From Acidimicrobiales bacterium (GTDB lineage: Bacteria > Actinomycetota > Acidimicrobiia > Acidimicrobiales > RAAP-2), in the NCBI GenBank assembly GCA_044446745.1, contig JBIOFE010000001.1:44759-108758 (forward strand): 64,000 nucleotides of DNA, in the 5' to 3' direction. The position numbers and the translations under genes were made by a program. The notes below the pieces were generated by a model, which saw only the letters and a program-made list of their open reading frames with translations, was not told the origin of the DNA and did not search any database. Numbering within the stretch: the stretch's first letter is position 1; the number at the start of each line of letters is the position of its first letter. Of this stretch, positions 37,026 to 38,761 are shown piece by piece.

Positions 37026-37402
37026 TACTTGGTGACCTTCTTCTTGCCGGCGACGGTGCGCTTGGGACCCTTGCGGGTGCGCGCGTTGGTGCGAGTGCGC
37101 TGGCCGCGAACCGGCAGCCCCTTGCGGTGACGGATCCCCTGGAGGCAGTTGATCTCCATCTTGCGCTTGATGTCCTGGGCCACGTCGCGCCGCAGGTCAC
37201 CCTCGACGGTGACGTTCTGGTCGATGTAGGTGCGCAGCTTGTTCACCTCGGACTCGGTGAGGTCCTTGACGCGGGTCGACTCGTCGACGCCCGTCACCGC
37301 GCAGACCTGCTGGGCGATGGTGGGGCCGACCCCGAAGATGTAGGTGAGCGCGATGACGACGCGCTTGTCACGCGGGATGTCGACGCCGGCGATGCGGGCC
37401 AT
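37025..37402 (-). CDS. rpsM: 30S ribosomal protein S13
   Basis: [43 protein letters not shown]. Confidence 0.98.
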
Positions 37403-37410
37403 TCTTCCTC

Positions 37411-37524
37411 CTAGCCCTGACGCTGCTTGTGGCGCGGGTTCTCACAGATCACGCGGACGTGGCCGGCCCGTCGGATCACCTTGCACTTCTCACACATTGT
37501 CTTGACGCTGGCGCGAACCTTCAT
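37411..37524 (-). CDS. rpmJ: 50S ribosomal protein L36 (Zn-binding form)
   Basis: Not in the ORF track. Manual translation [37 protein letters not shown] (37 aa). Confidence 0.97.
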
Positions 37525-37551
37525 TGTCGAACTTTCTTCGTAGAACCGGAG

Positions 37552-37776
37552 CTACTTGTAGCGGTAGGTGATGCGTCCACGGGTCATGTCGTAGGGCGTG
37601 ATCTCCACCTGCACCTTGTCCCCGGGCAGGATGCGAATGCGGTGCATCCGCATCTTCCCGGAGCTGTGGGCGAGGACGGTGTACCCGTTCTCCAGCTCCA
37701 CGCGGAACATGGCGTTGGGCAGTGGCTCGACGACGGTCCCCTCGACGGTGAACGCGTCTTCCTTAGGCTTGCTCAG
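37552..37776 (-). CDS. infA: Translation initiation factor IF-1, apparent CTG start
   Basis: [75 protein letters not shown] lies 7 nt before the in-frame CTG at 37776. Confidence 0.95.
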
Positions 37777-37865
37777 GTTCTGTCTCCTTGTTAGGCACTG
37801 CGGGCGTGGTGGAGCACGGCTCCGCCACGGATGGACCCTCGGACACGCCAAGAGGTCGGCCGACC

Positions 37866-37944
37866 ATTCTACCCCTTTTCCGCGTCAGCGCAAAAGTCGG
37901 CGGGATCGGGGCGACCATGAGAGCCCGAGCAGGGTGCCAGTGTA
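37866..37944 (-). promoter_or_regulatory. Two predicted tandem promoters for infA-rpmJ-alpha cluster
   Basis: TTGCGC-N16-TAGAAT (37893-37866) and an upstream -10 TACACT (37944-37939). Confidence 0.55.
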
Positions 37945-37978
37945 CCGGTCCCGGCCCAAATCGCATCAGCGAGCGCCC

Positions 37979-38233
37979 TCAGCGACTCTGGTGGCGCTCC
38001 TGGCGACGGCCCGAACCCTTGGACCTGCCGGCCCACCGAGTCGCGCCGGCGTTCCACGAACTGTCCGGACGCGGCTTGGCGGCGGGCGCGAGCGGACGGG
38101 CCTTCTCGCCCTCGGCCGTGGCCTCGGCGCCGTCCGACTCGTTCGGGGCCTGGTCGGTGGCGACGGCCTCGCCCTCGGTCCCGGCCCCGCGGGTCCGGGG
38201 AGTCACGCGCCCTCGCTTCGCACCCTTCTTCAC
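37979..38233 (-). CDS. Hypothetical 84-aa protein with basic termini and an acidic/Ala-rich middle
   Basis: TAGCGT-N7-GTG leaderless-type start at 38233. GC3-rich codons. MKKGAKRGRVTPRTR...WNAGATRWAGRSKGSGRRQERHQSR. Hidden inside a long shadow ORF in the track. Confidence 0.6.
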   Translation of the reverse strand: MKKGAKRGRVTPRTRGAGTEGEAVATDQAPNESDGAEATAEGEKARPLAPAAKPRPDSSWNAGATRWAGRSKGSGRRQERHQSR

Positions 38234-38315
38234 GTCCCCGACGCTAACCGCGTGGCGCCGCACCCGCTCGCCGGGCCCCGCGAAACCCGGCCGTACCACC
38301 GGGCGACGCGGCCAA

Positions 38316-38335
38316 GTTGTGACTGGCGGCCCTAG
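38316..38335. promoter_or_regulatory. Candidate DosR/DevR-type binding site
   Basis: gttGTGACtggcGGCCCtag versus the DosR core GGGAC-N4-GTCCC (8/10). Centred about 43 nt before ATG 38369. Confidence 0.4.
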
Positions 38336-38368
38336 CCGGTCTCCGGCGGGCCCGGCGAGGCTGACCTC

Positions 38369-38761
38369 ATGGGCGATCTGGGCAACGTGCGACGCGAGAC
38401 CCTTTCTCGCTCCGCGTGCGTCGCGCGACTCGCCGAGGCGGACCTGGCGCGCGTCGTGATCTCCGTCCGCTGCTTGCCCGCCGCGCTGCCGGCGCGCGTC
38501 GCGGTGGTCGACGACCAGCACCTCCTCCTGGCCAGCCCGGAGGAGGCGGTCGTCACCGCGGCCGATCGGGCCGAGGTGCTCTCGGTCCAGGTCGACGGCC
38601 TCGAGCCCGACGGGGCCACCTGGTCGGTCATGGCCTCGGGGATCGCGCGCACGGTGGCGACCGACGCCGCCCTCAACGACCGGCTCCGCGACGCGGTGGC
38701 CCGGGGCGCGACGATCGTGGAGCTGCCGCTCAGCGTCGTGGTGGGCGAGCGGGTCGGTTAG
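38369..38761 (+). CDS. Pyridoxamine 5'-phosphate oxidase-like (split-barrel flavin-binding) protein
   Basis: TLSRSACVARLAEADLARV...LPAALP...VLSVQVDG...WSVMASG fits the LSRxECxxLL...GRV..LP...FEVD...WSV pattern of actinobacterial proteins found beside Dos-type two-component systems. Confidence 0.7.
   Translation: MGDLGNVRRETLSRSACVARLAEADLARVVISVRCLPAALPARVAVVDDQHLLLASPEEAVVTAADRAEVLSVQVDGLEPDGATWSVMASGIARTVATDAALNDRLRDAVARGATIVELPLSVVVGERVG

Follow-up and report, generated by a model that had tools for sequence, protein, structure and literature searches.

A conserved CUG codon as the probable start of infA in Acidimicrobiia and its possible role in the control of initiation factor IF-1 synthesis

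Introduction

The locus described here raises the question of where translation of infA, the gene of translation initiation factor IF-1, begins, and of why a codon as weak as CUG may have been kept in that place. To our knowledge, a non-canonical start codon has been firmly established as a regulatory device in bacteria for essentially one case, infC, and we know of no report of autoregulation for infA of E. coli. In E. coli, IF3 autoregulation acts on the AUU/AUC start of infC, and initiation at near-cognate codons, CUG among them, reaches about 1-2% of what AUG gives (PMC5499595). Non-canonical 30S complexes come apart faster through the action of IF3, which IF1 and IF2 help to position in a cooperative manner (PMC8266586). 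Full-text searches of the literature have returned no publication in which infA of a bacterium starts at CUG or AUU or in which IF-1 is autoregulated, and experimental regulation of infA has not been found by them for any bacterium.

The window analysed here is a stretch of 64,000 nucleotides from the genome of an Acidimicrobiales bacterium, a MAG of 2.36 Mb in 58 contigs with 70% GC. The closest relatives that bear a name are MAGs labelled Acidimicrobiaceae, Acidimicrobiales or Acidimicrobiia, all of phylum Actinomycetota. A first-pass annotation of the window had proposed that infA starts at a CTG codon, and that this codon may couple IF-1 synthesis to initiation fidelity in a loop analogous to that of infC. 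In the following, the start site is settled as far as comparison with related genomes allows, and the proposed coupling is then weighed against a simpler account of the same codon.

The start site of infA and its product

The features of the gene that are needed for the argument are the following:

37784 to 37789, minus strand: Shine-Dalgarno sequence AAGGAG, read from the sequence; GGAG/GAGG core in 84/85 related genes
37774 to 37776, minus strand: CTG, predicted initiation codon of infA; CTG in 80/85 Acidimicrobiia-type infA genes
37552 to 37776, minus strand: infA coding sequence, translation initiation factor IF-1, 74 codons plus TAG (37554-37552); TIGR00008
37849 to 37851, minus strand: in-frame TTG chosen by the ORF caller (ORF list), rejected as start
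37708 to 37710, minus strand: ATG, first canonical in-frame codon, Met23 (...PNAMF...), read from the sequence

Direct reading of the minus strand places AAGGAG at 37789-37784, a spacer ACAGAAC of 7 nt, and CTG at 37776-37774, exactly where the first-pass annotation had put them. The start region runs CCTAAC AAGGAG ACAGAAC CTG, continues with the codons AGC AAG CCT AAG GAA GAC, and goes on through GCG TTC ACC GTC GAG GGG ACC GTC GTC GAG CCA CTG CCC AAC GCC to ATG TTC. As had also been claimed, no ATG, GTG or TTG lies in frame between the CTG and the ATG of Met23 (37710-37708). The first in-frame stop upstream of the CTG is the 37th codon, and the 36 open codons before it include a TTG, 25 codons away from the CTG. 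This is the start at 37851 that had been described as a GTG adding an implausible extension of 25 residues; the length and the objection have held, but according to the ORF list the codon is TTG and not GTG.

The product has the properties of an ordinary IF-1. The infA equivalog profile TIGR00008 is matched with 120.5 bits against a cut-off of 61.15, over positions 1-69 of 69, the first of which corresponds to the Lys four codons downstream of the CTG. Solved IF-1 structures (2n8n_A, E = 4.5e-31; 3i4o_A, E = 9.3e-31) are aligned end to end with query residues 4/5-74, so that the protein is seen to consist of the single S1-like OB-fold domain of about 70-75 residues by which IF-1 is recognised. 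Since the alignment to these structures begins as early as residue 4-5, Met23 is placed within the fold, in agreement with the earlier reading. infA is a single-copy gene, with one match in the whole genome.

Conservation of CTG across Acidimicrobiia

In order to follow the codon through related organisms, infA 5' regions have been gathered from 138 distinct genomes, among which 85 have an Acidimicrobiia-type N-terminus, x-[SPTA]-K-x-K-[ED]-[DE]. At the 85 distinct loci, the codon aligned to the CTG of the window is CTG in 80, GTG in 2, and TTG, ATC and GTA in 1 each. Four of the five replacements are thus start codons, and no synonymous Leu codon unable to start is among the five. The alignment of related 5' regions, which the first-pass annotation had named as a check, therefore lends strong comparative support to a CTG start. 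Likewise, the outcome that had been named as speaking against it, ATG or GTG in all close relatives, has not been encountered, as CTG is present in 30/30 relatives drawn from the genus itself and 7 further families of the order. Overall, CTG is carried by the whole genus and, within its GTDB order, by at least 9 further families; it is also found in named Acidimicrobiales, Microthrixaceae and Acidimicrobiia MAGs, and in a group in another order of the class with the N-terminus LAKPKDDTILVEGTVV. In two further genes (L078 and L028), CTG is shifted by one or two codons.

The behaviour of this codon differs markedly from that of Leu codons within the same genes. Inside the 85 genes, four Leu positions draw on the full set of six codons, with CTG in just 25-34% of cases (Fisher p = 3e-28 for the start codon against the internal positions), and the third-base entropy of 0.18 at the start codon compares with about 1.2 at ordinary third positions. 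In 35 of the 80 CTG genes, the frame is closed upstream by a stop before any ATG, GTG or TTG is reached, so that CTG is the sole possible start, and these stops are often only 3-6 codons away from it. The entropies at codon positions 1/2/3 are 0.48/0.19/1.24 for codons 2-22, the same as for codons 23-74, and 1.89/1.83/1.86 without periodicity in the 45 nt upstream (-66 to -22). A GGAG/GAGG Shine-Dalgarno core is located 4-8 nt before the start codon in 84/85 genes, with a mode of 7 nt. The absence of synonymous drift, the forced starts, the onset of coding at codon 2 and the Shine-Dalgarno sequence together identify the CTG as a start rather than a Leu codon, and these four comparative arguments rule out a sequencing error, a start at the upstream TTG and a start at Met23 as serious competitors. 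From the comparison of sequences we thus regard CUG as very probably the initiation codon of infA.

A few loci depart from CTG. Within Acidimicrobiales, one gene (L070) has CTG changed to ATC, with a stop five codons upstream. One genus of the same order (g18, L113-L115) comprises two species with GTG (L114, L115) and one species with CTG; this switch is a single-base change and recent. A complete genome from another order of the class (G116, a single 2.46-Mb contig; L116/L194) has GTA at the start codon position, and no ATG, GTG, TTG or CTG occurs in it between the upstream stop and the conserved IF-1 N-terminus. Either the assembly is in error at this place, or GTA serves as a start that is weaker still.

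Promoter, leader and operon

Upstream and downstream of the gene, the following features have been located:

37888 to 37893, minus strand: putative -35 box TTGCGC, predicted from the genus alignment
37866 to 37871, minus strand: putative -10 box TAGAAT, predicted, almost invariant in the genus alignment
37834 to 37857, minus strand: 5' leader hairpin 1 (GACCTC...GAGGGTC), helix 1 84% paired in 21 relatives, loop length variable
37805 to 37829, minus strand: 5' leader hairpin 2 (CGTGGCGGAGC...GCTCCACCACG), 11 pairs, 83% paired in 21 relatives
37411 to 37524, minus strand: rpmJ (L36), the next gene after infA (ORF list)

Alignment of the 140 nt upstream of the CTG has revealed the arrangement TTGCG(C/T)-16 nt-TAGAAT in about 27/30 same-genus loci. 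A scan for promoters and terminators, the consensus of which is of the E. coli type, has returned no matches, and the promoter is put forward on the strength of its conservation within the genus. From the -10 box, a transcription start would be predicted near 37861-37860, corresponding to a leader of about 84 nt. Pair counting in 21 relatives has shown that 7/11 pairs of hairpin 2 have undergone compensatory double changes, and that the whole two-helix structure is 83.5% paired, compared with 40-52% in controls with slid partners. The folding energy of the single leader sequence is no better than that of shuffled sequences (z = 0.08), and RNAalifold recovers only part of hairpin 2. The indels in the hairpin stretch are not multiples of three. 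The TTG at 37851-37849 is part of hairpin 1; it has no Shine-Dalgarno sequence, and about 10 nt separate it from the predicted 5' end.

Hairpin 2 pairs GGAG with CUCC, and this GGAG is a possible decoy or competitor of the real Shine-Dalgarno sequence. An Rfam search of 37300-38500 has given nothing in the infA leader; a sub-threshold match to Alpha_RBS (RF00140; 21 bits against a gathering threshold of 38, E = 0.025) is located at the rpmJ-rpsM junction, 37370-37420 on the minus strand. Coupling of infA to an overlapping ORF of 67 aa (37763-37966), the TAA of which overlaps infA codons 4-5, has been considered and rejected, as the relatives have CCA, CCG or CCC followed by AAG and thus no stop.

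According to the ORF list, the gene order is infA-rpmJ-rpsM-rpsK-rpsD-rpoA, with infA at the head of an alpha-type ribosomal-protein transcription unit. Given the conserved promoter and the structured leader, both predicted, infA appears to head a transcription unit of its own.

Alternative starts and the annotation of IF-1

Three other readings of the 5' region have to be weighed against a CUG start, and each of them has something in its favour. Regarding an upstream canonical codon, the TTG at 37851, from which the CTG would be translated as an ordinary Leu behind an N-terminal extension, the frame is open for the 36 codons mentioned above, and some gene callers indeed report extended products of 82-92 aa that fall in the same IF-1 protein cluster. 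Yet a stop and no canonical start precede the CTG in 35/80 relatives, canonical starts vary where present from -3 to beyond -40 codons, neither amino acids nor codon positions are conserved upstream of the CTG, and the stretch forms instead two covarying RNA hairpins with non-triplet indels. The TTG itself is placed close to the predicted 5' end with no ribosome-binding signal before it, and an ordinary Leu codon would vary synonymously, which the CTG does not. This reading is very improbable, and the view that the extension of 25 residues is an artefact has been strongly borne out by the relatives. Initiation at the ATG of Met23 (37710), yielding a product of 52 residues, is even less credible. 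Although this ATG is the first canonical codon, and the exact 52-aa product is recorded on >1000 contigs in protein clusters with JGI, ENA, Logan and NCBI submitters, codons 2-22 display a clear protein-coding substitution pattern and align to residues 3-21 of solved IF-1 structures, so that the short form would lack the first OB-fold strand, and no Shine-Dalgarno sequence precedes Met23. An error of sequencing or assembly that has turned ATG, GTG or TTG into CTG might be suspected in a MAG of 58 contigs; with the same base in 80 independently assembled genomes, including single-contig ones, its probability is negligible, and this reading is effectively refuted.

The public records reflect these readings. 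The 74-aa product starting with Met has an exact match in NCBI nr on 48 contigs, from which it follows that NCBI annotation already calls the CTG start. The correct IF-1 product is hence present in NCBI annotation, and what is new is an infC-style non-canonical start on the other small initiation-factor gene. Most gene callers other than the NCBI pipeline enter IF-1 of these organisms wrongly, either as the 52-residue fragment without the first strand of the OB fold or with a spurious N-terminal extension. This amounts to a systematic error in a universal marker gene, which spreads to protein databases, marker-gene sets and metaproteomic search spaces, and the organisms affected are abundant Acidimicrobiia of soil, peat, freshwater and wastewater.

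infC, initiator tRNA and other possible CTG starts

The gene of IF3 offers a direct comparison within the same genomes. In the source genome, infC starts with ATC, 6 nt after AAGGAG (contig C6, about 18048, plus strand; L111), and in 30/30 relatives examined it starts with ATC or ATA behind AAGGAG, and an in-frame TGA frequently separates the two. The conserved ATC/ATA start implies that IF3-based discrimination is evidently in use in the clade. As judged from these sequences, the classical signature of IF3 autoregulation is intact, and infA has the same design of a strong Shine-Dalgarno sequence and a codon of the class rejected by IF3.

The idea of a dedicated initiator tRNA with the anticodon CAG has been considered and rejected, since the genome has an initiator of the standard CAU type and its tRNA-Leu(CAG) is ordinary; consequently, the CUG must be read by near-cognate pairing with fMet-tRNA. 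A genome-wide scan combining Shine-Dalgarno sequences with codon-position GC has yielded 173 candidates for CTG, 139 for CTC and 177 for GTC, so that CTG is not enriched over the control codons. Although infA and infC are among the genes it recovers, the scan has little power at 70% GC, where AGGAG motifs inside genes drown the signal, and these counts hint weakly that CTG is not a general start in the source genome.

infA starts in other lineages

Beyond Acidimicrobiia, a second group with non-canonical infA starts has been found in another actinobacterial family (f35), where the gene starts with ATT in 12 and ATC in 1 of 13/13 genomes (L144, L182-L193, L255-L257). These genes encode the N-terminus (M)SKKE[EDG]..., have a GGAGG-like Shine-Dalgarno sequence 7-9 nt upstream, and mostly show a stop a few codons upstream. 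The genomes measure 1.3-2.2 Mb and are low in GC, about 30-33% locally. The 73-aa Met-initiated IF-1 of one of them is found in NCBI nr as 'Actinomycetota bacterium' (MAG records), and another yields a 52-aa truncation that appears as IF-1 in the annotation of 'Actinobacteria bacterium RBG_13_35_12'; from these matches the family is therefore taken to be an uncultured low-GC actinobacterial lineage. An identity with Nanopelagicaceae has been dropped, as the IF-1 products match the two records just named. Since ATT and ATC differ from CTG at two positions, and lineages in between have canonical starts, the family most simply represents a second, independent origin.

In about 50 other Actinomycetota families, infA uses ATG, GTG or TTG, with GTG or TTG commoner than ATG. 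Family f41, with the sequence VAKKQGAIEIEG..., has a GTG start, and in families f23, f29, f47 and f66 IF-1 has N-terminal extensions before the conserved KE[ED] motif. As a control, 401 genomes of one Bacillota phylum have been sampled: of the 30 best-scoring infA genes, 20 start with ATG and 10 with GTG, and the pattern CTG-xKxDxIE occurs in none of the 401.

Discussion

A CUG start of infA invites a mechanism in which the factor limits its own synthesis. A 30S subunit would dock on the strong AAGGAG 7 nt upstream of the CUG, where the ordinary initiator tRNA(CAU) would read the codon and give the normal 74-residue IF-1. CUG belongs to the near-cognate class (AUU, AUC, AUA, CUG) whose 30S initiation complexes IF3 would destabilise, with IF1 and IF2 helping to position IF3; the role of IF1 in this discrimination is assumed for the clade from E. 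coli. The output of IF-1 would then be low and would vary inversely with the proofreading activity of IF3 and IF1. Since CUG falls in the class destabilised by IF3, synthesis of IF-1 should fall with strong proofreading and rise with weak proofreading, provided that the rules of E. coli hold. The result would be a negative feedback built like that of infC, from a strong Shine-Dalgarno sequence and an IF3-rejected codon. Indeed, infA has been found to share with infC both the wide conservation of a codon of the IF3-discriminated class and the strong Shine-Dalgarno sequence at optimal spacing.

By analogy with infC, we consider it rather probable that the CUG start makes IF-1 synthesis responsive to IF3/IF1 activity. 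As part of the same explanation, and jointly with it, we propose that the CUG start is an ancient trait that has been kept by selection across Acidimicrobiales and at least one neighbouring order. Discrimination by IF3 and IF1 would then be the controller of IF-1 synthesis as well as the reason why the codon has been retained. Such a feedback is made more plausible by the ATC/ATA design of infC, by the replacement of CTG mostly by start codons, and by the convergence on ATT/ATC in the low-GC lineage. IF-1 is an abundant protein, and with so weak a codon the clade must either put up with inefficient initiation or be more proficient on CUG than E. coli is. A stronger claim, that IF-1 homeostasis through start-codon proofreading is a recurrent, convergently evolved and selected bacterial circuit, with CUG in Acidimicrobiia and AUU/AUC in the low-GC family, is advanced here tentatively, and we hold it to be somewhat more doubtful than not.

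A simpler account accepts CUG as the true start and sees in it a fixed attenuation, which sets the ratio of IF-1 to ribosomal proteins on a shared transcript without any feedback having been selected. In line with this, infA is the first gene of a ribosomal-protein unit (rpmJ, rpsM, rpsK, rpsD, rpoA) behind its own conserved predicted promoter, and the account starts from the premise that the cell requires less IF-1 than ribosomal protein. In the phylum as a whole, most infA genes start with GTG or TTG, the weaker canonical codons, and fewer with ATG; and as other Actinomycetota manage with ATG, GTG or TTG, a weak codon could reflect no more than a demand for low expression, with no feedback involved. 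One genus has both CTG and GTG, and the reversion of two of its species to GTG (L114, L115) means that CUG is not indispensable. In the chloroplast of Chlorella, infA starts with UUG, and a change to AUG gives 300-fold more translation (Hirose et al. 1999, as cited in PMC9845219). For a mere reduction of output, however, a weaker Shine-Dalgarno sequence would be simpler, yet a near-perfect sequence of the AAGGAG type at optimal spacing has been kept in 84/85 genes. The design of infA is, moreover, identical to that of infC in the same genomes, and two unrelated clades have converged on the class of codons rejected by IF3 (CUG; AUU/AUC) and not on arbitrary weak signals. If IF3 proofreads as in E. 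coli, a CUG start is also physically sensitive to IF3, and some coupling would be automatic. The fixed attenuation is a reasonable account that we regard as unlikely on balance; the strong Shine-Dalgarno sequence that has been kept, the convergence of two clades and the replacement by start codons favour a regulated design over it.

Several known systems resemble the one proposed here in part. In E. coli pcnB, which has an AUU start, a rare near-cognate codon likewise limits expression of a housekeeping gene, but pcnB is unrelated to initiation fidelity and has no feedback logic. The homologue of bacterial IF1 is eIF1A and not eIF1. The autoregulation of eIF1 through an AUG in poor context and of eIF5 through uORFs (PMC3326321) nevertheless follows the same homeostatic logic, in which a stringency factor has a sub-optimal start of its own; the machinery differs, as it depends on scanning and Kozak context, and the likeness is an analogy only. 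The closest counterpart is infC of E. coli (Butler, Springer and Grunberg-Manago 1987, as cited in PMC5499595), which like infA here combines a conserved near-cognate start with a strong Shine-Dalgarno sequence. The two differ in the codon, AUU in infC and CUG in infA, and in the role of the product, IF3 being the discriminating factor and IF1 an accessory of proofreading. The chloroplast gene of Chlorella (1999, FEBS Lett 445:169, in the account given by PMC9845219) is the same gene with a non-AUG start that strongly limits translation. Its UUG is canonical and accepted by IF3, whereas CUG is of the class that IF3 rejects; TTG occurs in only 1/85 relatives. The Chlorella case concerns a plastid gene, and the CUG infA is a clade-wide trait of free-living Actinomycetota.

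If the recurrent circuit proposed above is real, synthesis of both IF-1 and IF-3 would be set by the current stringency of initiation through one shared mechanism, and the loop would be the first autoregulatory one described for bacterial IF-1. A second initiation-factor gene that keeps an IF3-rejected codon across a whole class, together with an independent clade using AUU, would suggest a broader principle, by which the initiation machinery would set its own stoichiometry by reading its own fidelity.
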